Positions 3,153-36,757 are shown, numbered from the stretch's first letter. The stretch is DNA of 36,757 nucleotides from Thermoplasmatales archaeon (GCA_030019485.1 JASEEW010000001.1:1-36757); one strand, 5' to 3'. Notes: a model not told the origin generated them from the letters alone. Translations and numbers: made by a program.

Positions 3153-3801
3153 GCCTTCTTGCTTTGATAACTATCCCCATTGATCTATAAATTTTCAAAA
3201 ATTTTATGTCAAAAACACCTGCTTTTTTAATAACCCTAAGTTTGTTTTTCTCGAGAAGTTTTTCTAAATCCTTAAATGTAAAGTAATGTAGGTGCCCGCC
3301 GTCATATGCTTCTTCGTCATCTGAGGTTTTAGGAAATCTCCCTGCAATTATAGAGATGACGTGTTTCCAATACTGGATATTTGGTGATGAGATAATAAGT
3401 ATCCCACCTTTTTTTATAACCCTACTGAGTTCAGCGGTAAACTTTCTTGGGTCAAAAATGTGCTCTATCACATCGAGACAAATAACAGCATCAAAACAAT
3501 TGTCTTTAAAAGGCAACCCCAGATTGAGATTAGCTTTGACCGCTCTTATCGAAAGTTCTTGTGCTCGTCGAAGTGCTTCCCTCGACAAATCAACACCATA
3601 AATTTCTTTGTATCTATCTTTAACCAATGTAGCAAAACTACCGTTTCCGCATCCGATATCTAATAACCTATCACCTGAACCAACCAACTTCGATGCAATA
3701 TCCATCCTAGAGCCTGTCTCTACTTTTCTACTCTCTTTTAATTTTCTAGCCCATATCTCGTCGTATATCTTTGTTATTTTTACAGTTAGCACAACACTCA
3801 C
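3145..3801 (-). CDS. Class I SAM-dependent methyltransferase
   Basis: 218 aa. Motif I is LLDIGCGNGSF, with an acidic residue at the end of beta-2 (YGVDLS) and the post-I/II motifs DAVICLDVIEHI. The 3' end overlaps the convergent GT by 8 bp. Confidence 0.8.
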   Translation of the reverse strand: MSVVLTVKITKIYDEIWARKLKESRKVETGSRMDIASKLVGSGDRLLDIGCGNGSFATLVKDRYKEIYGVDLSREALRRAQELSIRAVKANLNLGLPFKDNCFDAVICLDVIEHIFDPRKFTAELSRVIKKGGILIISSPNIQYWKHVISIIAGRFPKTSDDEEAYDGGHLHYFTFKDLEKLLEKNKLRVIKKAGVFDIKFLKIYRSMGIVIKARRLI

Positions 3802-3829
3802 CTTTCTATAAGAGTTTTATTTCATCCAA

Positions 3830-4570: not shown

Positions 4571-4756
4571 TCATGCACGCCGAGCCGATTGTGCATAACG
4601 CCCCCCCCAGCTATCTAATAACCTATCACCTAGATCAACTAACTTTGATGCAATATCCATCCTAGACCCTTTTTCTACTTTTCTAATTTCTTTAGATTTT
4701 CTAGCCCATATCTCATCATATATTTCTGTTATTTTTCCAGTTAACATATCTGTCAC
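4571..4756 (-). pseudogene. Truncated duplicate of the 5' end of the 3145-3801 methyltransferase gene
   Basis: The first ~48 codons (MTDMLTGKITEIYDEIWARK..GSRMDIASKLV..GDRLLD) parallel MSVVLTVKITKIYDEIWARK..GSRMDIASKLV..GDRLLD. Nt 4612-4756 align without gaps to 3657-3801, with roughly 22 mismatches in ~145 nt by hand count. Homology stops before the SAM motif and the ORF runs into unrelated GC-rich sequence. Confidence 0.7.
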
Positions 4757-5976
4757 TTTATATCTATAAGGGATTTATACACATTTATAGTTTCATCAAC
4801 CATTTTTTCTACGCTGAACTTTTCTAAAATTTTTCTTCTCGCATTTTTCTTAATTTTGTTTGAAATTTCTTTTTCCATTAAAACTTTCATAACAGATTCA
4901 GTTAAAGCCTTTGTATCACCCGCAGGCACAAGAATCCCATCTTTCCAGTTTTCAATCACATCTGGAATCCCACCAATGTTTGAGGCAATAACTGTTTTTC
5001 CAGATGCCATAGCTTCTAAAACAACCAATGGTAATCCTTCAACCCTGATGCTGGGTGCAACAAATACGTCAGATGCAGAATAATATTTTGGTAAATCGTT
5101 ATCTAAAACCTCACCAGTGAATATTACGTTTCCATCTATACCCAAATTTTTTACTTGCACCTTTAAGCTGTCCATGTATGGCCCAACACCAACGATTAAC
5201 AACACCGCGTTTGCCCCTCTCAGAATTTTTGGAAGGGAATAAATAACATTTTGAAATCCTTTTTCTCTTTCAACCCTACCTACACATAAAATCATTTTTT
5301 TTGTATTTACACCATACTTCATTCTAACATCATCCCCATCCATACTTGGACTGAATTTATTTGTGTCAATCCCATTCAGAATGGGAAAAACCTTTCTACT
5401 ATCTATAGGATAGTAGTTTTTTAAATGAGGAATTAGTTTTTGACTTACTGTGATTATTGCATCAGAACTAGGAAGGTAAGCTCTTTCCCATATTATATAT
5501 TTGTATAAATCCTTAAAAATATCTAGCAATGATAACCCAGAATTTATGGGATGACGAAATGAGAACTGGAGAGTTTTGGTTTTTGCCTCATTAAGAAATG
5601 TGCCATGCAATGTTGCAACAAATGGAAGATTATATTTTTTATTCAATCCTTTTTTTATAAGATAATATCCACCCGCACTTTGACTATGGACTATATCAAA
5701 CCTTTCTTGTTTATGCAGTGTTTCAAATTTTTTAACACTTTCAAACCACCATTTCTTTGAATATATTCTTGGTTTTGTGTGCTTTAGATAATAAATATCT
5801 ACACCCTCTATGTTCTCCCGCTCATCCCCTTTAGGATGCCCTGTAGTGATAACACTTACATTATGTCCCTTTTTTACAATGCCTTTACAGAGAAGTAAGG
5901 TATGTCCTTCCATGCCACCAGTACCATGTGCAGGTATTGCGCGTGTAAGTATGCAAATATTGTATTTTCGTGCCAT
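4753..5976 (-). CDS. Glycosyltransferase, GT4 (group 1) family
   Basis: RVEGLPLVVLEAMASGKTVIASNIGGIPDVI and N-terminal ICILTRAIPAHGTGGMEGH. I prefer the start at M32 (ATG at 5976, MARKYNICILT). The upstream 31 codons of the listed ORF look like a non-coding extension. Confidence 0.85.
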   Translation of the reverse strand: MARKYNICILTRAIPAHGTGGMEGHTLLLCKGIVKKGHNVSVITTGHPKGDERENIEGVDIYYLKHTKPRIYSKKWWFESVKKFETLHKQERFDIVHSQSAGGYYLIKKGLNKKYNLPFVATLHGTFLNEAKTKTLQFSFRHPINSGLSLLDIFKDLYKYIIWERAYLPSSDAIITVSQKLIPHLKNYYPIDSRKVFPILNGIDTNKFSPSMDGDDVRMKYGVNTKKMILCVGRVEREKGFQNVIYSLPKILRGANAVLLIVGVGPYMDSLKVQVKNLGIDGNVIFTGEVLDNDLPKYYSASDVFVAPSIRVEGLPLVVLEAMASGKTVIASNIGGIPDVIENWKDGILVPAGDTKALTESVMKVLMEKEISNKIKKNARRKILEKFSVEKMVDETINVYKSLIDIK

Positions 5977-12774: not shown

Positions 12775-12864
12775 GATGCATTTGTTTTTGGATATAAAAT
12801 TGTTTTCCTACTGCAAAGTCAAGGAAGATATGCAGCATTGATAAACAAATGAAAGGCGCAATAT

Positions 12865-12925
12865 TACGGAATTTGCTCTGCAAATTCCTAATATTTCAGG
12901 AAAAATGCAGAGCGTTTTTCCGTGA
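12865..12925 (+). repeat. Paired-palindrome element, copy 1 (upstream of bioY)
   Basis: GGAATTTGC-TCT-GCAAATTCC (12868-12888), linker TAATATTTCA, then GGAAAAATGC-AGA-GCGTTTTTCC (12899-12921). Palindrome centres are 32 bp apart. Confidence 0.75.
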
Positions 12926-12932
12926 AAAGTGT

Positions 12933-12956
12933 AAAATGCAAAATATTTTGCATTTT
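12933..12956. repeat. Perfect 24-bp palindrome AAAATGCAAAAT|ATTTTGCATTTT
   Basis: Read directly. It lies between element copies 1 and 2 in the MtaB/bioY divergent intergenic region. Confidence 0.85.
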
Positions 12957-12991
12957 TCAATTTGCATTCTTCATTTTTCACTAGTTATTAT

Positions 12992-13047
12992 GGAAAACGT
13001 TGAAAACGTTTTCCTAATATTTTAGGAAAATGCTTTCGGCATTTTCC
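12992..13047 (+). repeat. Paired-palindrome element, copy 2 (upstream of bioY)
   Basis: GGAAAACGTT-GAA-AACGTTTTCC (12992-13014), linker TAATATTTTA, then GGAAAATGC-TTTCG-GCATTTTCC (13025-13047). Centres are 33 bp apart. Confidence 0.75.
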
Positions 13048-13087
13048 GTAAAATGCAGATGTCTGCTGACTTTACAATAAGCATAGA

Positions 13088-13133: not shown

Positions 13134-13751
13134 ATGAACGTGTTCATAGAAGGATACAAAAACAGCATGCACAATTTTTTTAAATGGAGAACTGAAACAA
13201 AATTTGTTTACAAACTTGTGATGTGTTGCTCTTTTGCCTGTTTCACAGGCTTGATGGCACAGCTCAGGTTTTATCTTCCATTCACACCTGTTCCATTAAC
13301 AGGGCAGACATTCGCAGTCCTACTTTCAGGTGTAATACTTGGAAAATACTATGGCGGTCTCAGTCAGGGTATTTATGCAGGACTTGGGTTTGCTGGTGTT
13401 CCATGGTTCGCAAATTGGAGTGGGGGGCCTGCTGTCCTGTTAGGACCAACAGGCGGGTACATAATTGGTTTTATTCTTGCTGCATTATTCATAGGCTGGG
13501 CTGTTGACTCAAATGTTAAGATAAGAAGTTTACCAAGCATGCTTGGTTTAATGCTGTTTGCCGATATAGGGTTAATCCTTATCCCTGGAACATTATGGCT
13601 GTACATATGGCTGAATACTTTTTATCCTGCTGGTATATGGGAAGCAATGCTGATGGGCTTCATTCCTTTTGTAGCAGGTGACGCAGTAAAGGCTTTTGCT
13701 GCTGGAACAGCCGGACGACTGACAATACCAAAAACTGCCTACAGTAGATAA
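13134..13751 (+). CDS. bioY: Biotin transporter BioY (ECF S-component type)
   Basis: PFTPVPLTGQTFAVLLSGVILG..GLGFAGVPWFA..GPTGGYIIGF is the BioY signature. I prefer the start at ATG 13134 (MNVFIEG), which follows AGGTGA. The listed ORF start at 13053 is an upstream extension. Confidence 0.9.
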   Translation: MNVFIEGYKNSMHNFFKWRTETKFVYKLVMCCSFACFTGLMAQLRFYLPFTPVPLTGQTFAVLLSGVILGKYYGGLSQGIYAGLGFAGVPWFANWSGGPAVLLGPTGGYIIGFILAALFIGWAVDSNVKIRSLPSMLGLMLFADIGLILIPGTLWLYIWLNTFYPAGIWEAMLMGFIPFVAGDAVKAFAAGTAGRLTIPKTAYSR

Positions 13752-13755
13752 ATTC

Positions 13756-14136
13756 ATGAAACTAAGAGGGCATCATCTAATATGCTTTCAGTTTTTTAGA
13801 GGAGAAGGATATAGCAAAATTTTTGTGGAAAACGCAAAAAAGATAGCTGAATACTGGGAAAAAAACCCTGCTGAAACAGTAAATCATGCAGATGATATAT
13901 GCGGGTTTTGTCCTTTTCTAAGAAATGGAAAATGCAGTAAATATGAGGATATTGAGAAGAATGATGAACTTGCATTAAAACTCTTAGGATTGAATGTAGG
14001 GGATAAGGTAAGAAAGGGTTTTGTAAAAAAACAGCTGCCAAAAATACTTAATGAATGGAAAGAAAAGGCATGTAAAAATTGTGAGTGGAAAAAACTGTGT
14101 GTATTGGAATATAAAAATATTACATCAAATGGATAA
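13756..14136 (+). CDS. DUF1284-like cysteine-rich protein
   Basis: 126 aa. N-terminal LRGHHLICFQFFRGEGYS and the paired Cys motifs (CGFCPF..C, CKNCEW..C) resemble what I recall of DUF1284. The start is 4 bp after the bioY stop. The 3' end overlaps birA by 17 bp. Confidence 0.55.
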   Translation: MKLRGHHLICFQFFRGEGYSKIFVENAKKIAEYWEKNPAETVNHADDICGFCPFLRNGKCSKYEDIEKNDELALKLLGLNVGDKVRKGFVKKQLPKILNEWKEKACKNCEWKKLCVLEYKNITSNG

Positions 14137-14824
14137 CATCACCTGAAACGATTTTTTCACCAGATTCAAGAACTAATCTGCCATGTTCATCAACATCTAC
14201 TGCTTTTCCATCAATAACCTTGTTTGTTGCTTTTATTTTTACTCTCCTGCCTATTGTGGAGCAGAGTTTTTTGTACTCATCCAAAACATTTTTCTTGGAA
14301 AATTTTTCAAAATTCTTCAGAATACTGTTTAAAACTGCATCCCTGGAAACATTTTTTCCTGTTTCATCATTTATTGATGTTGCTGTTTCCAGGGGTGTTT
14401 TATTTATGTTTACGCCAACACCAACAACAGCAAAATCATCAAGGCACTCGATGAGTATGCCTGAAATTTTTTTGTCCCCCACCATAACATCATTAGGCCA
14501 TTTTAACACTGGGAATAAACCAAAATTTTTTAATGAGACTGCAACAGTGACGCCTGCGATTAATGGAAGCATTGGGTTTTTTTTGGTAGCAATAGAAAAA
14601 TAAAGCCCGCCAAAAGGTGAAAGCCATCCCCTGTTCATTCTTCCCTTTCCTTTTGTCTGCTCATCAGCAACAACAGCAAAATTTTTTTCACCTTTCATTT
14701 CATGGAAAAATGCAGGGCATTTTTCCTGAAATATTAGGAATTTGCTCTGCAAATTCCGTAATAGAACAATTTTTTTTGCCACATCATTTGTTGAAGTTAC
14801 CTTTTTGAAATGATAAATTTTCAC
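14120..14824 (-). CDS. birA: Biotin--protein ligase (BirA catalytic type, no N-terminal HTH), carrying an in-frame insertion
   Basis: IYHFKKVTSTNDVAK .. VVADEQTKGKGRMNRGWLSPFGGLYFS .. LKWPNDV is the BPL signature (GRGR-type loop reads GKGRMNR). GTG start at 14824. There are ~20 extra residues between the STN helix and the VVADEQT strand. Confidence 0.85.
   Translation of the reverse strand: MKIYHFKKVTSTNDVAKKIVLLRNLQSKFLIFQEKCPAFFHEMKGEKNFAVVADEQTKGKGRMNRGWLSPFGGLYFSIATKKNPMLPLIAGVTVAVSLKNFGLFPVLKWPNDVMVGDKKISGILIECLDDFAVVGVGVNINKTPLETATSINDETGKNVSRDAVLNSILKNFEKFSKKNVLDEYKKLCSTIGRRVKIKATNKVIDGKAVDVDEHGRLVLESGEKIVSGDVIHLM
14701..14762 (-). repeat. Paired-palindrome element, copy 3 (inverted), inside the birA reading frame
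   Basis: GGAAAAATGC-AGG-GCATTTTTCC (14704-14726), linker TGAAATATTA, then GGAATTTGC-TCT-GCAAATTCC (14737-14757). The 21-mer is identical to 12868-12888, and the linker is the exact reverse complement of the copy 1 linker. Confidence 0.8.
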
Positions 14825-14864
14825 AAAACAAAATCGTTATTTGTGAAGATTAAGGTTTGCATCA

Positions 14865-15020
14865 GCCCTTTCTTTCTCTTTACAAGAGAAAGAAAGCGAC
14901 TGGCGGAAAGAAAGAGAAAACAGCCAACTCTCAGTTGGCTTAGGCGGTTGCTTCGCAACCGCCAATCTCTTCTTTTTTCGCCAGCGTTTTTCTTTTCTCT
15001 AAGAGAGAAAAGAAAAAGGC
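14865..15020. repeat. Composite ~155-bp palindrome containing four perfect stem-loops
   Basis: H1: CTTTCTTTCTCTT-tac-AAGAGAAAGAAAG (14868-14896). H2: AGCCAACT-ctc-AGTTGGCT (14922-14940). H3: GGCGGTTGC-ttc-GCAACCGCC (14943-14963). H4: TTTTTCTTTTCTCT-aag-AGAGAAAAGAAAAA (14987-15017). The outer parts are also mutually complementary (CGACTGGCG 14897-14905 with CGCCAGCG 14979-14986). Confidence 0.75.
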
Positions 15021-15024
15021 TGTG

Positions 15025-15354
15025 TCACATGAACGTCGGCGGACTCCCAACTGTCAGATAAACTGCTTTTTCATCACCAATATTTTTTGCCCCATGAAGA
15101 AGATTAGACTTGTGCCAGAGCGCATCGCCTTCCCCCATGACATAGAAGTTCTCTCCAACCCTGTATTCTATTTTTCCTTTAAGTAAAATGTGTATTTCCT
15201 CCCCCTCGTGTTTGTACAGTTTGGATTCCACGCCTATCCCCATCTCTGATATTACTGCTTCCATTCTTTCTGATTTCATCAGCATTCTAAACAGTTTACC
15301 TGGTTCTCCTGTTTTGTATTTTCCCTCTCCTTTTTTCATAAATATTTCATCCAT
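15025..15354 (-). CDS. Small cupin-domain protein
   Basis: ~109 aa. HEGEEIHILLKGKIEYRVGENFYVMGEGDALWHKSNLLHGAKNIG fits the two-motif cupin pattern. I prefer ATG at 15354, which follows GGGGGTGA. The listed start at 15369 is a GTG. Confidence 0.6.
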   Translation of the reverse strand: MDEIFMKKGEGKYKTGEPGKLFRMLMKSERMEAVISEMGIGVESKLYKHEGEEIHILLKGKIEYRVGENFYVMGEGDALWHKSNLLHGAKNIGDEKAVYLTVGSPPTFM

Positions 15355-15369
15355 TTTTTTCACCCCCAC

Positions 15370-15476
15370 ACTCAGTAGTTAGGGGAGAGCAGTTAGAAGT
15401 TAGGGAACATCTGACTCCTAACTCCTGATCCCTAACTCCTTGCCTTAACCCTTGATCCCTAACTACTCCCATTTTT
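15370..15476 (-). repeat. Intercistronic TTAGGG-unit hairpin element, copy 1 (pycA stop to cupin start)
   Basis: Plus strand: GTAGTTAGGGG..AGTTAGAAGTTAGGGA..TCCTAACTCCTGATCCCTAACTCC..GATCCCTAACTAC. The outer 10-bp arms GTAGTTAGGG/CCCTAACTAC and inner AGTTAGG/CCTAACT arms are complementary. Confidence 0.7.
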
Positions 15477-16922: not shown

Positions 16923-18722
16923 CTACATCACCTGCATAAGCACATCACCTGGCTGGACAGAATCCCCTTCTTTAACAAATATCTCCTTTACTTCACCTTC
17001 CAGATCAGATGTTAACTCCTGCTCCATTTTCATGGCCTCAATAGTCAGGATAACATCCCCTTTCTTGACTTTGTCGCCTTTTTTCACCTTGAGTTTCATT
17101 ATTATTCCCTGCATAGATGATTTAACACCACCTTCAATTTCCTTTGGTTTCACTGCAGGTGCTGCACTGGGAACAGCAAAACCAGTTGGTGTAACCTTGA
17201 CCTCGTACGCCTCACCATCAACCTCGACACTGAATTCTATGGGTATGGATGCAGGCTTCCTTGCCTCAGGAGGCTCAGTTTCAATCCATATCTGTTTATG
17301 CTCAGGGAAGTATTTATTCACCATGGCCCTTGTTAAAGGATGATTGAACGGCAATGGTAATTGCTCAGAGGTAAACTCCGGGTTTGCCTCGCCTTTCAGA
17401 AACTTTAACCCTACCTGGGGGTAAATAGCATAGGTTATAACATCCTCTGGTTTTTTCACCAGTCCCATTTTCTCAAGCTCGTCCTTTCTTTTTTTATACA
17501 TTGGCTCAAGTAAATCAGATGGCCTGCATTCTATTATTTCATCCTTCCATTTTGGTCCTAGTATTGTTTTGTATATTTCCTTTGATATCTCACCAGGTGG
17601 CTTGCCGTACATTCCTTTCACATAGTCCTTTGTTTCCTTTGGGATTTTTTTGTATCTGCCGAAAAGAACATTCATCACTGCCTGAACACCAACAACCTGG
17701 GATGTGGGGGTAACAAGTGGAGGATAACCTAAATCCTTTCTGACCCTTGGCGTCTCTGCAAGAACCTCATTGTATTTATCTGCTGCACCCTGCTGCTCCA
17801 ACTGAAAAACCAGATTTGATAGCATCCCGCCTGGTATTTGATGAACAGTAACAGATGGGTCAACCTTCAACGCCGTTTGCCTGTGCAGATGCCTGTACTT
17901 GTCCCATATCTTCAAAAAATATTCCCTGCATTCCATAAGCAAATTCATGTCATAACTAGTGTCATACTCTGTTCCTTTTAATGCTGCTACAACAGATTCT
18001 GTTGCGGGCTGACCGGTGCCGCCGGAGATGGGTGAGATAGCAGTATCAAGTATGTCAACACCTGCCTCGCATGCCCTCATGTAAGCCATACCTGTCATTC
18101 CTGATGTGCAATGACTGTGTAAATCAATCGGTATTTTTATCCCTGCGTCCTTACATTCCTTTATTATGTCATAAGCCATTTTTGGTGAAATCATCCCTGC
18201 CATATCCTTAATACACAGTGAATCACAGCCCATTTTTTCCAGTTTTCTGAAATCATCAACATATCTTTCAACAGTGTGAACAGGAGAGATGGTGTAGCAC
18301 AATGAGCCCTGGGCATGACCGCCGACCTCTTTAACTGCCTCAATAGGAACCTTCATGTTCCTTAAATCATTCAATGCATCAAAAACCCTGAAATAATCAC
18401 ATCCGTCTTTTTTTGCGTAATAAATAAATTTTTTTACTATATCATCAGGGAAATTCCAGTATGCAACAATGTTCATTGCGCGCTCAAGCATCTGCAGAGG
18501 CGTGTTTGGAAGGGCAGATTTCATTTTTTTCAATCTTTCCCAGGGGTCCTCATTCAGGTATCTTATTGGAACATCAAATGTTGCACCACCCCAAACCTCA
18601 AAAGAAAAAAAACCTATTTTGTCTATGACAGGGCATATTGGAAGCATGTCCTCTGTCCTCATCCGCGTTGCAAGTATTGACTGATGCGCATCCCTAAATA
18701 TCTGCTCATGTAGTTGTACCAT
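16923..18722 (-). CDS. pycB: Carboxyltransferase + biotin-carrier subunit (pyruvate carboxylase subunit B / oxaloacetate decarboxylase alpha family)
   Basis: 599 aa. FRDAHQSILATRMRT (TIM-barrel carboxyltransferase), HCTSGM, and a C-terminal biotinyl domain with the IEAMKME biotinylation motif. Confidence 0.85.
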   Translation of the reverse strand: MVQLHEQIFRDAHQSILATRMRTEDMLPICPVIDKIGFFSFEVWGGATFDVPIRYLNEDPWERLKKMKSALPNTPLQMLERAMNIVAYWNFPDDIVKKFIYYAKKDGCDYFRVFDALNDLRNMKVPIEAVKEVGGHAQGSLCYTISPVHTVERYVDDFRKLEKMGCDSLCIKDMAGMISPKMAYDIIKECKDAGIKIPIDLHSHCTSGMTGMAYMRACEAGVDILDTAISPISGGTGQPATESVVAALKGTEYDTSYDMNLLMECREYFLKIWDKYRHLHRQTALKVDPSVTVHQIPGGMLSNLVFQLEQQGAADKYNEVLAETPRVRKDLGYPPLVTPTSQVVGVQAVMNVLFGRYKKIPKETKDYVKGMYGKPPGEISKEIYKTILGPKWKDEIIECRPSDLLEPMYKKRKDELEKMGLVKKPEDVITYAIYPQVGLKFLKGEANPEFTSEQLPLPFNHPLTRAMVNKYFPEHKQIWIETEPPEARKPASIPIEFSVEVDGEAYEVKVTPTGFAVPSAAPAVKPKEIEGGVKSSMQGIIMKLKVKKGDKVKKGDVILTIEAMKMEQELTSDLEGEVKEIFVKEGDSVQPGDVLMQVM

Positions 18723-22267: not shown

Positions 22268-22357
22268 TTACTCCTCCACCCTAGTAGCTAGGGGTTAGGG
22301 GGATTGTTTTCCTTTTTTCCCCTAATCCCTAATCCCTGATCCCTAACTACTTTCATC
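22268..22357 (-). repeat. Intercistronic TTAGGG-unit hairpin element, copy 2 (HD-gene stop to fused-dehydratase start)
   Basis: GTAGCTAGGGGTTAGGGGG (22284-22302) faces CCCCTAATCCCTAATCCCTGATCCCTAACTAC (22319-22350). The arms GTAGCTAGGG/CCCTAACTAC pair 9 of 10. Confidence 0.7.
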
Positions 22358-25341: not shown

Positions 25342-25350
25342 ATTCTTCAC

Positions 25351-25442
25351 CCCACACTTAGAAGTTAGCAGTTAGAAGTTAGAAGTTAGAATTCAGGGAA
25401 CTCTGACCCCTAACCCCATGACCCCTAACTCCTGATCCCTAA
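25351..25442 (-). repeat. Intercistronic TTAGGG-unit hairpin element, copy 3 (aclA stop to icd start)
   Basis: The plus-strand left arm holds tandem AGTTAGAA/AGTTAGCA units (25362-25390). The right arm is CCCCTAACCCCATGACCCCTAACTCCTGATCCCTAACTAC. The last CTA is the aclA stop codon. Confidence 0.7.
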
Positions 25443-27287
25443 CTACTGACTACTCGTTAAGTAGCATATGTCATCCCATGGGTGCCTGTAAAGCCCCTGT
25501 TTCAACCTCTTTTGGTCAAGATAATGACCCATGAGTCCAATGCTTCTGCCTAAGACAAACAACCCATTAAGCGCACCCATTGAAACATACTCGTCAGCCT
25601 CCTCCCTTGTGAATTTTCCACAGCTCCTGAGAAGGTCCACAAAACAGATGCCTATGCAGCCATCCACATTCAGAATGAGATTGTTTTTCTTCTTTGTTGT
25701 GAGCTTTTCAACCTCAAGCGCATAGTCCAGCAGAGGTGTTGCCTTGAAATGCTTTTTAACATAATCCTTTATTAAGGTCACCCTCATATCAGGGTTCTGC
25801 ACGCTCTTCACCCTGTGACCTATCCCCTGGATGTTCACACCTTTTTTCTTTTGCTCATCCACAAACTGTGAGGGTGTAAGCCCTCTGTCGTATGCTGAGG
25901 AGAACATCTGAGCTGCCCCATCTATTGCCCCCCCGAACCTTGGTCCAATGGTAAGAAGCCCTGAGACAAGTGAGGATATTAAATCCTTTCCTGCCCTTGC
26001 TGCAACAATGGTGTTATGCGCACCTGATACTGCCGGGCCATGATCAGCTGTGATCTGCAAAACCATTTCAATAAATTTGTGACCATAATCTGGGAGCTGG
26101 CGTTTGAACCAGAGCTGAGATATCACACCACCAGTACCTATATTCCTTTTGAACACATCGGTAATAGAGATGTCGCCGTAATGCAACTCTTCTCCTCTAT
26201 CATCTGAGATTGTGGAAATAAAATTTGTTGGTTTTCTAATCATTCCCATCTTCACTGCCCAAGCGTAATCCATGGGCATCCCTGGTTTTTCAGGCTCTGT
26301 TTTCTCTTTAATAACCCCTTTCTTTACAAGAGCATTATAGGTTTCATTGATTTTTTTATCAAACTCATCAAAAGAGTCTGGTACTATAGCACCTGCTTCT
26401 TTCAATGCCTTATTCTTTGCATCTGCTGTCTCAAGCTCCCCTCCTGCAAGAGCGCCTGCGTGCCCGAACTGAACCTCTGATTTGAACATCTTCGCACATG
26501 TACCTATGCACCAGGCAACCACTGGTTTTTTGATTTTACCACTTTTTATAGCTTCAACAACCTGGTATTCATCTATTCCACCAACCTCACCCAGCAGGAC
26601 AATCATCTTGATTTCAGGGTTTGCCTCATATCTTAGTATATGGTCAATGAATACAGAACCAGGGTATCTGTCACCACCAATTGCAATGCCTTCATAAACA
26701 CCGTCTGTGTTCCTAGCAATGATGTTGTTAAGCTCGTTTGACATGCCGCCTGATTTTGACACGTATGCCACACTGCCGGGTCTGTGCAGTTTGGATTCCA
26801 TGATGTTATCTATCATCCCTCCTGTGTTACCGATTTTGAATGCGCCTGCCTTTAAACCACCAACAGTAGCAGGTCCTATAATCGTTTTTTTTCTTTTTTT
26901 CGCTTCAGCAATAATCTCCTTTGTTCTCCTTTCAGGGATTCCTTCAGCAATGACTGCTACTGTTTTTATGGAATCATAACCCAGTGCCTCCATTGTAGTT
27001 GGGTAGGCTGACCTGAAGGATGCAAAATTAACAACCACATCTGCTTCAGGATGTTTTTTCACTGCATCCTTCAATTCTTTATAAACAGGTACCAGTATTT
27101 CCTTACCGCCGAAAAAGGCTTTATGAAACCCGTCCCTGCCGGAAGGATTAATTATTGCTGCAACAGAAGGTATTTTCCTTCCGCAGACATAATCAAAGTC
27201 AAGCATTCTCTGAACCGCATTCGCCTGCATGCCGTACACGAATGACTGGGTATCAACATCAAACAGGTCATACCATTTTTTTGCCAT
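25443..27287 (-). CDS. aclA: ATP-citrate lyase alpha subunit (CoA-ligase alpha-like domain + citrate-synthase-like lyase domain)
   Basis: 614 aa. [71 protein letters not shown], the phospho-His loop VQFGHAGA, and the C-terminal GIGHRVKS citrate-synthase fold. Confidence 0.92.
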
Positions 27288-33122: not shown

Positions 33123-33597
33123 AAAATAGACAATGTAACGTCTTGTAACAATAAAGATGGCATCAAGCTGTATAATTCCTCAGACAACAATACAATAAGA
33201 AACTGTATCATTTATTACAATTCTGATAATGGCATCTATCTGGATTCTTCCTCAAACAACCAAATATCAAATTGTGGTGTTTACAACAATTCTGATGATA
33301 GTATCTGTCTGGATTCTTCCTCAAACAACCAAATATCAAATTGTGGTGTTTACAACAATTCTGATGATGGTATCGGCCTCTGGGATTCCTCAAACAACAC
33401 CATCACCCGCAACCAGATTTACAACAATTCTCGGTACGGCATCTATCCCTCCTGTTGAGGGTGTAGGTTGGACACCAGTGGAAGGTGAGGAAGAGGTTGA
33501 GGAAGCGGAGAAGGTGGTGGAAGTGTGTGGAGGAGTAATCTATCTGCCTCTAATCGTAGTGGGCATCTGCATGATACTGTTAAAAAGAAAAAAATAG
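33123..33597 (+). pseudogene. Remnant of a parallel-beta-helix (PbH1-repeat) surface protein: 5' end removed at the IS boundary, frameshifted before its C-terminal TM anchor
   Basis: Frame 3 reads ..DNVTSCNNKDGIKLYNSSDNNTIRNCIIYYNSDNGIYLDSSSNNQISNCGVYNNSDDSICLDSSSNNQISNCGVYNNSDDGIGLWDSSNNTITRNQIYNNSRYGIYPSC, with a stop at 33456-33458. Frame 1 then continues ..PPVEGVGWTPVEGEEEVEE..GGVIYLPLIVVGICMILLKRKK, a TM anchor plus basic tail like the other surface proteins here. Confidence 0.5.
33240..33377 (+). repeat. Two tandem 69-bp units (one PbH1 repeat each); 60 nt are identical
   Basis: CTGGATTCTTCCTCAAACAACCAAATATCAAATTGTGGTGTTTACAACAATTCTGATGAT occurs at 33240-33299 and again at 33309-33368. 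Confidence 0.85.
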
Positions 33598-33908: not shown

Positions 33909-36757
33909 TTATTTCATTGCACCTTTTTTCTTTTTCACGATTACCAAGCTAACAGCAATTATTATAATAACTGCTGTAATCCCAACACCGGTATAGAGCA
34001 ACCAGTTAATTCCTTCTTCACCTGCTACTTTTTTCTCAGCCATTGGCGTGAATATTGTGAGATGATCAACCTTTGTCCATACTGTGTTGTTGTTTTCCCA
34101 TACACCACTTTCAGGTATGAGTATCCAGTTGCCCTGAGTCTCATTCCAATAGTACATATGCAGATCTGATGCTTTAACGCCTGCGTTTTTAAGTTGTTCA
34201 GGTGTGTACTGAATGGTTATCAATATATTCTTGGATGCACCTGTAACCTCCACAAACACGCCAATTCCTATCAGGTTGTCTGGTACTGTGCCTGTAGATG
34301 GTTTGATATTTAACGTTGCAGGACCAGTATATCTCACAAAAACAGGGTTTCCATTTATAATTCTGCTCTTTGTTCGAATGATATCCCCACCATTGGAGTC
34401 AGATGTTAATTGTATTGTGAAATCTGGTATGCCATCCTTATCATCATCAACACTCAAACTAACTGCATTCTCTGTAGTAGAACCTATTTTACTCCAATCT
34501 GTAACAGTATATGACTGTAATGAACCACTGCTTATGCTCATATCACTTGCAACAAAGGTCTGTGTAGCATTAACAATATACAGTGAATAGAACTTGTCCT
34601 CATTTGATGTTATATTTAATATTCCAGCATCCATACTTATACTGAAGCTGTCCACGGTTACTGTGGATGTGTTTGATTCAAAGCAGTAGGTTTTCCCAGT
34701 GAACTCACCAGGGCTGAACTCTCCAGGACTGTATTCCCCAGGACCAAACTCACCAGGACCGAACTCACCAGGACCAAACTCACCAGGACTGAAAACAGTG
34801 AACTTGTACTCACCAGAACCAGCACCAGTAACCATGTAATCATACTCCGCACTTCTTGGCAGTATGTATATTTCAACATCACCGCATACAATAACTGTTG
34901 CGTTTGGAACAAAATTCACAACTTCTCCATTCTTAAAACCAATCTTACTCCCATATTTGTCTGTGATTAGGAGGTCTGCTGGGCAGTCAAGTGTTACTAC
35001 AACCATTCCCCTGAAACTGGAGTAATATTCAACAGCACTCAAAACCGTGATGTTTTTATAAACAGTATCAGATGCATCCTCATTATCGGTGACTGTTAAA
35101 CTAACAGTATGAGCACCGGTTGTGTAGTAATGATAAACAAACATATCTGTGCTTGCAGTTCCATCATCAAACTCCCATTCATAGCCTGCTATGTTCCCAT
35201 CAGGATCATAAGAAACAGACTCAAACCTCATGAGGCAGACGCCCCTTATCATCATATCCAGCAGCTCTGTGAGATTGAACATTCTGGTTTGTGTTTCATT
35301 CTTGTTTGCGTTGAACACAAGATGCGTTTGGTTTTTGTTTGAAATGTTTCTGTATTCCACTGTCAGCCAGACAGGGTTTGCTCCTTTTTCCTCAGCAGTG
35401 TAATCCAGGACTATAATATATGTCTGGGATGAATCCATAATTATTGATATTGTTTTGGTGTCCGGGCACCCTGGCTCCCTTGTTATGCTGACATTGCCCA
35501 GAACACCATTATCATTGGATATTGTCATATTCACTGTTTTGTATTTCGTCCCAGAAACCCTGAGCGTAACATTAACGGTATCATTGTCTGCAACCTGTAT
35601 GCCTTCATAGTAAACAAAATCTGCTACGGGTGGAACATTAACGTTGCTGACCCAGAGTGTCCATGAATGATTCACTGATAGTTTTGGTGTGCCGTTATCT
35701 ATGATAATAACTGTGACATTATAAACACCCTCCTCTGTTGATATGAATGTGTAGCTGCTGTTTGTTTCACCAGCAACCACTACATTATTCAAATACCATT
35801 TATAACCAATGCTGTTATCATCTGGGTCATACGCAACCACTGTAAATGTTTGATTCTCTGTCTCGTTAATAAATGAATAAACATTAGGAGAATAAGAACC
35901 TATGACTGGTGCCCTGTTTGTATTGATAATTGTAAGTTTGAATATCTGCTGGACAACATCGGTTCCATCAGTTGCTGTGATGTTAACCCAGTAAGTACCA
36001 GCAGAATCATAGTTTGGTGTGAATGAAATTAATCCTGTTGTTTGGTTAATGTCAAAAAGGGTTGTATTGTCTGAAAACATAATAGTATCATTATCAGGAT
36101 CAGATGCGTTAACCTGGAGTGTAAATAGCTGTCCTTCATAGGCTGTCTGATCACCAATAGGTTTTATGATTGGCGGTCTGTTCACATTAATTACAGTGAG
36201 TGTCCATTTATGATAATCATAATATACGCCGTCAGAAACAGTAACATTAACAACATACGTTCCAGCTGAATCATAGTTGGAGACAAAGGTGTATGCAGTA
36301 CCTGTTTCACCTGTTAACTCTCCATTCACATACCATGCATAGGTTAAATCATCCTCGTTAATATCAGATGCCACAACATTGAATGTTATGGATTCTGTTT
36401 CATTAATAGTAGGATCAAACGCAGGGTAGTAGGTTTCTATCACTGGTGGCTGATTCTCAGTTATGATTGTGAAATTCCAAACAACTGACCAATCACCAAG
36501 ATTCCCTGCATTATCCACTGCTCTGACCCTCCAGTAATATGTTCCATTCAGCAATGCTGAAGATGTTGTGCTGTTCGCTACTGGATTGCTGCTCCACTCC
36601 AAAGATGAGAAATCAGGTTTATCATCAACCTGAATCTCATAAAGGAATATACCAGATAGTTCATCAACAACAGCTGACCAAACAAACGTTGGCGTGGCTG
36701 TAAGCATGGTACTGTTGTTTTCTGGTGAAATCAGGGATGGAGCTGATGATGCTAGTG
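33909..36757 (-). CDS. Large PKD/Ig-like-repeat cell-surface protein with C-terminal TM anchor (5' end outside window)
   Basis: The frame stays open upstream of the listed M (36707) to the window edge (..LASSAPSLISPENNST-MLTATPTFVW..). There are several PKD-like modules (for example YEWEFDDGTASTDMFVYHYYTTGAHTVSLTVTDNEDASD). The C-terminus is WLLYTGVGITAVIIIIAVSLVIVKKKKGAMK. About thirty N-x-S/T sequons by hand count. Confidence 0.85.
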   Translation of the reverse strand, partial: LASSAPSLISPENNSTMLTATPTFVWSAVVDELSGIFLYEIQVDDKPDFSSLEWSSNPVANSTTSSALLNGTYYWRVRAVDNAGNLGDWSVVWNFTIITENQPPVIETYYPAFDPTINETESITFNVVASDINEDDLTYAWYVNGELTGETGTAYTFVSNYDSAGTYVVNVTVSDGVYYDYHKWTLTVINVNRPPIIKPIGDQTAYEGQLFTLQVNASDPDNDTIMFSDNTTLFDINQTTGLISFTPNYDSAGTYWVNITATDGTDVVQQIFKLTIINTNRAPVIGSYSPNVYSFINETENQTFTVVAYDPDDNSIGYKWYLNNVVVAGETNSSYTFISTEEGVYNVTVIIIDNGTPKLSVNHSWTLWVSNVNVPPVADFVYYEGIQVADNDTVNVTLRVSGTKYKTVNMTISNDNGVLGNVSITREPGCPDTKTISIIMDSSQTYIIVLDYTAEEKGANPVWLTVEYRNISNKNQTHLVFNANKNETQTRMFNLTELLDMMIRGVCLMRFESVSYDPDGNIAGYEWEFDDGTASTDMFVYHYYTTGAHTVSLTVTDNEDASDTVYKNITVLSAVEYYSSFRGMVVVTLDCPADLLITDKYGSKIGFKNGEVVNFVPNATVIVCGDVEIYILPRSAEYDYMVTGAGSGEYKFTVFSPGEFGPGEFGPGEFGPGEYSPGEFSPGEFTGKTYCFESNTSTVTVDSFSISMDAGILNITSNEDKFYSLYIVNATQTFVASDMSISSGSLQSYTVTDWSKIGSTTENAVSLSVDDDKDGIPDFTIQLTSDSNGGDIIRTKSRIINGNPVFVRYTGPATLNIKPSTGTVPDNLIGIGVFVEVTGASKNILITIQYTPEQLKNAGVKASDLHMYYWNETQGNWILIPESGVWENNNTVWTKVDHLTIFTPMAEKKVAGEEGINWLLYTGVGITAVIIIIAVSLVIVKKKKGAMK
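34701..34790 (-). repeat. Six tandem 15-nt units encoding (P-G-E-F/Y-G/S) pentapeptide repeats
   Basis: Units start at 34701, 34716, 34731, 34746, 34761 and 34776 (GAACTCACCAGGxCx variants). The protein reads SPGEFGPGEFGPGEFGPGEYSPGEFSPGEFTG. Confidence 0.85.

Follow-up and report, generated by a model that had tools for sequence, protein, structure and literature searches.

The segment at positions 14697-14763 (minus strand) of the window, as we call the whole 36,757-nt stretch of Thermoplasmatales DNA that was analysed, belongs to a family of small, dispersed, non-coding repeats that occurs in a clade of uncultured Thermoplasmata-like archaea. This doublet of hairpins entered the birA gene seamlessly and in frame, with at most 1 nt of duplication, at the turn that follows helix alpha-1, and the insertion at that point has given a BirA with 22 extra residues. 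The best explanation, which we consider highly probable, is that of a dispersed, mobile and non-autonomous palindromic element lying in frame in birA and tolerated by the ligase, and not of a site for biotin regulation. A mobile palindrome tolerated by BirA was among the readings offered by the original prediction, and it is well supported by a 22-codon presence/absence polymorphism, by the dispersed family, by other in-frame members and by a predicted fold that stays intact.

The host gene, birA (14120-14824, minus strand, GTG start), encodes a group I biotin protein ligase (BPL) of 234 amino acids, as indicated by the Pfam domains BPL_LplA_LipB and BPL_C. Comparison of filled and empty sites delimits the element, which reads in the coding sense TATTAC GGAATTTGC-AGA-GCAAATTCC TAATATTTCA GGAAAAATGC-CCT-GCATTTTTCC ATGAAAT, that is, two hairpins joined by a linker and bordered by short ends. 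Hairpin 1 (14737-14757, minus strand) has a 9-bp stem closed by the AGA loop, flipped with respect to the copy 1 described below, and hairpin 2 (14704-14726, minus strand) has a 10-bp stem closed by the CCT loop and includes a tract of five T (T5) on the mRNA-sense strand. In net terms 66 nt were inserted, either 14697-14762 or 14698-14763, one terminal T being ambiguous, and they add to BirA the peptide LRNLQSKFLIFQEKCPAFFHEM. A repeat search of the window placed this segment in its longest inverted repeat (12862-12927 versus 14698-14763, 66 nt at 88%; the runner-up is 37 nt at 73%), so that the repeat relation first noticed in the sequence stands under a formal alignment. Moreover, the core TTCCTAATATTTYAGGAAAA occurs at exactly three sites of the window (12885, 13011 and 14721), against a chance expectation of 0.02. 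The nearest relative of the birA copy within the window is copy 1, upstream of bioY (12862-12928, plus strand), with 58 of 66 nt in common. Several details of the original prediction are found as described: the 21-mer GGAATTTGCTCTGCAAATTCC is the same on the plus strand at 12868 and 14737, the 10-nt linker of one copy is the reverse complement of that of the other (TAATATTTCA versus TGAAATATTA), and both have the same orientation to transcription, copy 1 being on the plus strand with bioY and the birA copy on the minus strand with birA. In the birA frame the element is translated without a stop as LLRNLQSKFLIFQEKCPAFFHEM and sits, as proposed, between the STN helix and the VVADEQTKGKGR strand; its in-frame placement was correct, and its extent, given as about codons 21-41, has to be moved to codons 22-43.

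The insertion itself is documented by the orthologues. A search of 5.8 billion proteins recovered two further BirA proteins (233 and 220 aa) with the identical 22-residue segment, together with nine close orthologues of 211-214 aa that are 76-82% identical outside the insert and from which precisely these 22 residues are missing. The gap is equally exact in five more distant orthologues, the insert being confined in this alignment to P0001-P0003, and the limits of the insertion thus correspond to 22 codons absent from close and distant orthologues alike. At the DNA level, the empty site reads GCTC-TG-AAAGG (GCTCTGAAAGG in L056) and the filled site GCTC-TATTAC...GAAAT-GAAAGG, with 66 nt added and no target-site duplication beyond a possible single T. 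The structure of the M. jannaschii ligase (2EJ9) gives the same picture, with BirA residues 1-19 and 44-233 aligned to its residues 1-19 and 22-236 and BirA residues 20-43 matched by only 2 residues, which indicates that the insert replaces a 2-3-residue turn of the solved archaeal BPL structures and bears out the statement in the original prediction that archaeal BPLs are about 20 residues shorter at this point. An origin of the segment as native BirA sequence that resembles the upstream repeats by chance has in its favour an open reading frame and nothing more; against it, the segment is missing from the 14 aligned orthologues and from the solved BPL structures, and the boundaries of the segment coincide with the ends of the family element within 1 nt. 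Such an origin was rejected on the orthologue gap and the matching ends, and its probability is practically nil.

The family to which the element belongs was delineated by two scans. With the 19-nt core as query against 185,579 species-representative genomes, 50 loci were found, eight of them on eight contigs of one metagenome-assembled genome (MAG), 'Methanobacteriota archaeon CSMAG_2300', and one of these eight is its birA; the remaining loci were single matches in unrelated bacteria. A more specific pattern applied to JGI metagenomes gave 81 loci with 93 copies in 53 distinct flank contexts, and across these 81 loci the ends of the element are sharply defined, with the consensus TATTAC GGAAAACGCTGAAAGCGTTTTCC TAATATTTCA GGAAAAGCCTTTGGCTTTTCC GTGAAAT. 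The family is built from a palindrome of about 33 nt, with a GGAA...TTCC stem of 8-10 bp and an A/T-rich foot, as its basic unit. Units with stems of at least 8 bp number 313 in 532 kb of related contigs versus 2 in 310 kb of unrelated control loci, and their arrangements comprise 62 solos, 89 doublets and 12 triplets, besides longer arrays with up to 8 units; the commonest arrangement is the doublet of two units, of about 66 nt. Most copies are intergenic and some lie inside real genes. The flanks show no target-site consensus past the terminal T, no known RNA family was detected in the window by Rfam at gathering thresholds, and the family pattern had 0 matches in viral contigs, which gives no sign of a viral origin. 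No preference for gene 3' ends or convergent pairs, of the kind that a role as terminators would suggest, was seen among 13 tandem, 7 divergent and 3 convergent contexts.

As RNA, the element folds into two hairpins with -28 kcal/mol (z = -5.7), and as DNA it does so with z = -7.1; the 'linker' is taken up into the feet of the two hairpins, which start 6-7 nt from each end of the element. Among 38 distinct copies, pairing is kept in 98.1% of the cells, and changes on both sides of the stem affect 11 pairs (77 cells); none of 500 shuffles reaches these values, and no slid register comes near them. The same stem can be found with its loop in either orientation (GAA/TTC, TTT/AAA, TCT/AGA), and the occurrence of loops both ways round makes the reverse-complement peculiarity of the birA copy a property of the whole family. 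Each unit is asymmetric, with a bulged C 5' of hairpin 1 and a bulged G 3' of hairpin 2, and owing to this asymmetry the doublet resembles two inverted units. The covariation of the stems may reflect selection for hairpin formation, or it may instead reflect a template-switch correction intrinsic to quasi-palindromes.

In birA the element is not alone in having been read as protein. In a class I methyltransferase (L074, P0123), three family hairpins, including YYGKHFQCFPNISGKAPGFSVK, make up a 43-aa insert that is missing from 11 orthologues of 48-79% identity; an NCX_Mj-like Na+/Ca2+ exchanger (L107) contains a pair of copies in tandem, which lie in frame between the last two of its transmembrane helices; and a NuoD/hydrogenase-like ORF (L091) reads through a copy as a C-terminal extension. 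The typical 66-nt doublet is open in one sense frame, and members of the birA subfamily in another. A doubled profile of the element peptide, YYGKxFQxFPNISGKAxxFSVK, retrieved only two short hypothetical ORFs and so provides no census of in-frame copies.

The consequences for the enzyme can be appreciated from an AlphaFold2 model of BirA, built on an 86-sequence alignment, with a mean pLDDT of 92.8 and a pTM of 0.89. In this model the insert extends helix 1 (residues 12-28) and then forms two short helices, with pLDDT values per 10 residues of 82, 61 and 76, the rest of the chain being mostly at or above 90. In Foldseek the model comes closest to the BPLs of P. horikoshii and M. jannaschii (TM-score ~0.8), the GKGR loop and the lysine of KWPND are intact, and the ligase fold is predicted to be kept despite the insert. 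The 'surface loop' put forward for the insert is suggested by the model and by its position at the 2-3-residue turn. BirA would accommodate the insert as a continuation of helix alpha-1 exposed to solvent and would remain an active ligase.

A different outcome had also been envisaged, in which the insert inactivated birA or moved translation to the internal ATG (MKGEKNF...), giving an N-terminally truncated protein. The 3' end of the element does bring an in-frame ATG at codon 43, the birA of the window starts with GTG, and a 200-nt hairpin-rich spacer absent in relatives lies between the cupin gene and birA. Against this, the 234-codon frame is fully open in three diverged lineages with the invariant catalytic residues (GKGR loop, KWPND) kept, no Shine-Dalgarno-like sequence precedes the internal ATG, and the window encodes biotin-dependent enzymes that require a ligase, one of them, at 16923-18722, with the AMKM biotinyl motif. 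In characterised BPLs the STN motif contacts biotin (Ser89/Thr90 in E. coli BirA). A protein restarted at M43 would lack both strand 1 and this motif, and the loss of the latter makes a restart unlikely. With the complete ORF and its catalytic motifs preserved in three lineages, both inactivation and restart are disfavoured, and we regard them as very improbable; the reading of a tolerated insert in a working ligase is preferred.

The second proposal that the element invites concerns its neighbourhood. Upstream of bioY (13134-13751, plus strand, probable start ATG at 13134) lie copy 1 and, according to the element alignment, copy 2 (12986-13054, plus strand), which stops some 80 nt before the probable start codon. 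The two copies form part of a composite block of 260 nt (12822-13076, plus strand), made of copy 1, copy 2 and, between them, a spacer that contains the perfect palindrome TGCAAAATATTTTGCA. In this context, the paired palindromes could be operators of a biotin-responsive regulator, with the intragenic copy coupling birA to bioY, as the original prediction allowed. The window's only three doublets are all within 1.9 kb around bioY and birA, where they flank the bioY-DUF1284 / birA-cupin cluster; L001 too has a hairpin array upstream of bioY plus the birA insert; and a dimeric protein could bind cooperatively to GGAA/TTCC half-sites spaced as regularly as these, at 32-34 nt. Other data speak against an operator. 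BirA lacks a DNA-binding domain, Pfam detecting in it BPL_LplA_LipB and BPL_C and no helix-turn-helix (HTH), which departs, together with sites that are not limited to biotin promoters, from operators of the BirA/bioO type. The family occurs in 53 contexts unrelated to biotin, and its stems covary instead of keeping a fixed sequence. In an insert-less lineage (P0006, a Thermoplasmata MAG) no family hairpins were found in contigs of ~38 kb, the bioY upstream region included, where an ordinary promoter region for bioY follows immediately on the neighbouring gene. The conserved bioY promoter region, moreover, begins downstream of copy 2, the homology of the window with its relatives starting at ~13083 and the gene further upstream differing in each lineage. 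Finally, the 260-nt block recurs at ~93% identity in the contigs L059, L065, L106, L118, L129 and L135: in all of these except L129 it lies ~700 nt upstream of an archaeal 16S rRNA gene, and in L129 ~170 nt from an IS110-family transposase gene (the block lies at 9482-9741 in L135 and at 1727-1985 in L129). The absence of an HTH in BirA and the hairpin-free region upstream of bioY in insert-less relatives argue against an operator, and with more than 50 contexts foreign to biotin the intragenic operator linking both genes is not sustained and appears extremely improbable. We infer that the element is not a biotin-specific regulatory site. On the reading of a mobile repeat, the clustering of the three doublets near bioY and birA is explained only by assuming local copying.

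Some further observations were made around these genes. Several contigs end within the 260-nt block, which is what a repeat present in many copies would lead one to expect. The break in synteny falls precisely on the hairpin array 5' of bioY (window ~12775-13083; L001 1936-2371; L003 3153-3210), the upstream neighbour of bioY being a MiaB-like radical SAM gene in the window, a transketolase gene in L001 and a PEPCK fragment in L003-L005. Short PEPCK_N / PEPCK_GTP fragments flank the biotin cluster in L002-L005, which suggests a disrupted PEPCK gene.

A less straightforward aspect of the birA insertion is its sequence conservation. The three filled alleles are 81-84% identical outside the insert, and their flanks 79-85% identical among the three lineages, whereas the insert is identical at 66 of 66 nt. 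The nearest relative of each filled allele is, besides, an empty one (L001-L056, 96.3%; L013-L057, 88.2%; window-L058, 86.9%), with neighbour-joining bootstraps for these pairs of 100, 100 and 70.5, respectively. Transfer of the insert by homologous recombination was tried as an explanation and found no support: the flanks of filled alleles show no extra similarity, 44-52 of 58-60 positions matching, which is no better than between filled and empty alleles, and flanks that have not been co-converted leave ordinary recombination unsupported. Judged from these sequences, a single simple insertion would fail to account for an identical insert in diverged alleles, and two readings are possible, namely a repeated seamless insertion at the same site or an old insertion that stayed unchanged and suffered at least three precise losses.

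An old insertion would be expected if the element had been exapted in birA, either its 22 residues or its two mRNA/DNA hairpins with the T5 tract being functional and selected, for example by modulating the expression of birA or the interactions of BirA, with precise loss in several lineages. The identity of the insert at all 66 nt in three lineages with flanks of 79-85%, the filled alleles without excess flank similarity and the great stability of the hairpins (-28 kcal/mol) are compatible with this idea. At four other orthologous sites, elements are 83-99% identical versus 77-90% for their flanks, their excess over the flanks being seen at values of 94-99%, a conservation that makes constraint plausible and is not sufficient on its face. 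On the other hand, the insert is absent in most close orthologues, at least three independent precise losses would be needed, and members at orthologous sites can diverge strongly, as in L032 versus L121, where the elements are 83% identical and both stems have been replaced. Exaptation is, on balance, unlikely. The repeated insertion would correspond to a site-seeking ('homing-like') mobile palindrome, the same 66 nt having entered birA at the same nucleotide position on separate occasions in three or more lineages, diverged by 16-19%, seamlessly and with flanks that were not co-converted; this we put forward tentatively, as a somewhat doubtful reading. If it were true, there would be in archaea an insertion guided by sequence or structure, hairpin/HUH-guided or bridge-RNA-like, and a repeated remodelling of an essential enzyme.

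With regard to known systems, in-frame palindromic repeats in unrelated bacterial genes have been described as Rickettsia palindromic elements (RPEs) and intragenic REP dimers (Ogata et al. 2000; Di Nocera et al. 2013, PMC3733652; PMC10969869). The archaeal family shares with them a multi-copy, dispersed small palindrome found repeatedly in frame in unrelated protein-coding genes, with frame-keeping copies of ~20-30 residues that are absent from orthologues and located at sites where the fold tolerates them, and it also has in common with them the doublet as the commonest intragenic form. It differs in its archaeal host, as attested by the archaeal-type BPL and the archaeal 16S rRNA near a copy, in its length (66 nt versus ~100-150 nt for most RPEs) and in having no GTAG or CGTC tag. 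The likeness claimed is one of behaviour, that of an element which works like an RPE, and not one of membership.

A second group of relatives by behaviour is formed by the REP, BIME and REPIN elements, mobilised by RAYT (TnpA-REP) tyrosine transposases (PMC3116915, PMC2817692, PMC6006769), of which the subclasses of REP-associated TnpA (class 2) were reported from bacterial groups in one survey within the same literature. Here we find again palindromes of 20-40 nt that occur as solos, inverted doublets and arrays, in high copy number, mostly intergenic, with asymmetric units and no target duplication. The feet are different, GT[AG]G in REPs and TTAC-GGAA in the archaeal element, whose consensus reads TATTAC-GGAA... 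and ...TTCC-GTGAAAT and shows neither GT[AG]G nor CGTC. In archaea, the small mobile repeats known as PATEs and SMRs of Haloquadratum walsbyi (Dyall-Smith et al. 2011, PMC3119063) also lack a transposase and make no target duplication, and the PATEs bear near-terminal palindromes derived from fused IS605-type transposon ends. The birA element resembles them in its palindromes near both ends and in the absence of a target-site duplication (within an ambiguity of at most 1 nt), and the strong target preference given there for some SMR families would fit a recurrent insertion at the birA site. They are longer, however (SMRs ~110 bp), the passages of that paper considered do not describe them as in-frame protein additions, and no parental IS605-type element was found in the contigs considered here. 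A classical MITE is a poorer match, the inverted ends TATTACGGAAAA / ATTTCACGGAAAA being imperfect and the duplication not extending past a single T.

The element would accordingly be pictured, by analogy, as non-autonomous and dependent for its movement on an enzyme, supplied in trans, that recognises DNA hairpins, for which REP/REPIN, PATE and IS200/IS605 ends handled by HUH tyrosine transposases offer a model. These transposases insert and excise without target duplication. The birA copy would then derive from the neighbouring subfamily upstream of bioY, which has the same stems, by local transposition or copying. As for the enzyme, a phmmer search of limited sensitivity with E. coli RayT, against all ORFs of ~570 kb of contigs from incomplete genomes, returned nothing below E = 1, and no IS200/IS605 element was seen in the contigs examined. 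Since the GTAG/CGTC tag is missing and no RAYT or IS200/IS605 element was found in these contigs, the family is said to work like REPs, PATEs and RPEs and is not filed as a member of any of them.

Two transposase genes were observed between family hairpins, one at 542-1552 of L129 (DEDD_Tnp_IS110 + Transposase_20) and the other, of the rve type, at 4937-5863 of L079. Insertion sequences (ISs) of the IS110/IS1111 family such as ISPpu9 are known in bacteria to target REP-like palindromes (PMC8450116), and by this precedent both genes may belong to ISs that use the hairpins as targets. The L129 gene fits in being flanked by family hairpins next to the 260-nt block; it differs from the birA element in representing a full IS, of which the hairpins are probably the target, and there is no sign that it mobilises the 66-nt doublets.

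By analogy with these systems, the birA repeat can be regarded as a REP/RPE/PATE-like element in an archaeon and as an archaeal counterpart of the gene-invading palindromes of Rickettsia. In-frame invasion by palindromes is known in bacteria, and no archaeal example turned up in searches of the open-access literature; in this case it affects uncultured Thermoplasmata-like archaea and an enzyme that the cell likely needs. The filled and empty birA alleles make up a natural set, with one pair 96% identical outside the insert, which could be used to test how a fold takes up 22 residues and how hairpins move in archaea without target-site duplication. There is also a caution for annotation: such repeats can be mistaken for regulatory palindromes, and they can extend ORFs, break assemblies and coincide with breakpoints of synteny.

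Other repeats were noticed in the window. The 200-nt spacer between the cupin gene (15025-15369, minus strand) and birA, at 14825-15024, contains four different perfect palindromes, among them CTTTCTTTCTCTT-TACA-AGAGAAAGAAAG and GGCGGTTGC-TTC-GCAACCGCC, and for a 35-nt stretch of it there is a match at 12158-12191 of L135, on the downstream side of a 16S rRNA gene. In the relatives L002-L005 and L001 the cupin stop abuts the birA start or lies 4 nt away, and the birA start is GTG in the window instead of ATG; the spacer probably represents another inserted element, unrelated to the first, by which birA is uncoupled from the cupin gene. Telomere-like CCCTAACT / AGTTAGGG motifs in inverted arrangement occupy three intergenic blocks (15364-15470, 22319-22351 and 25350-25449) and constitute a second intergenic palindromic repeat family. 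Seven copies of a 15-nt period (AACTCACCAGGAC-like) at 34687-34819 lie inside a 932-aa ORF (33909-36707, minus strand), where they encode a pentapeptide repeat, and four copies of a 69-nt period at 33210-33447 are found just downstream of its stop codon. Lastly, a direct repeat of 148 nt with 84% identity, its copies 955 nt apart (3657-3804 and 4612-4759), coincides with the ends of neighbouring minus-strand ORFs and may represent paralogous gene termini or yet another repeat.
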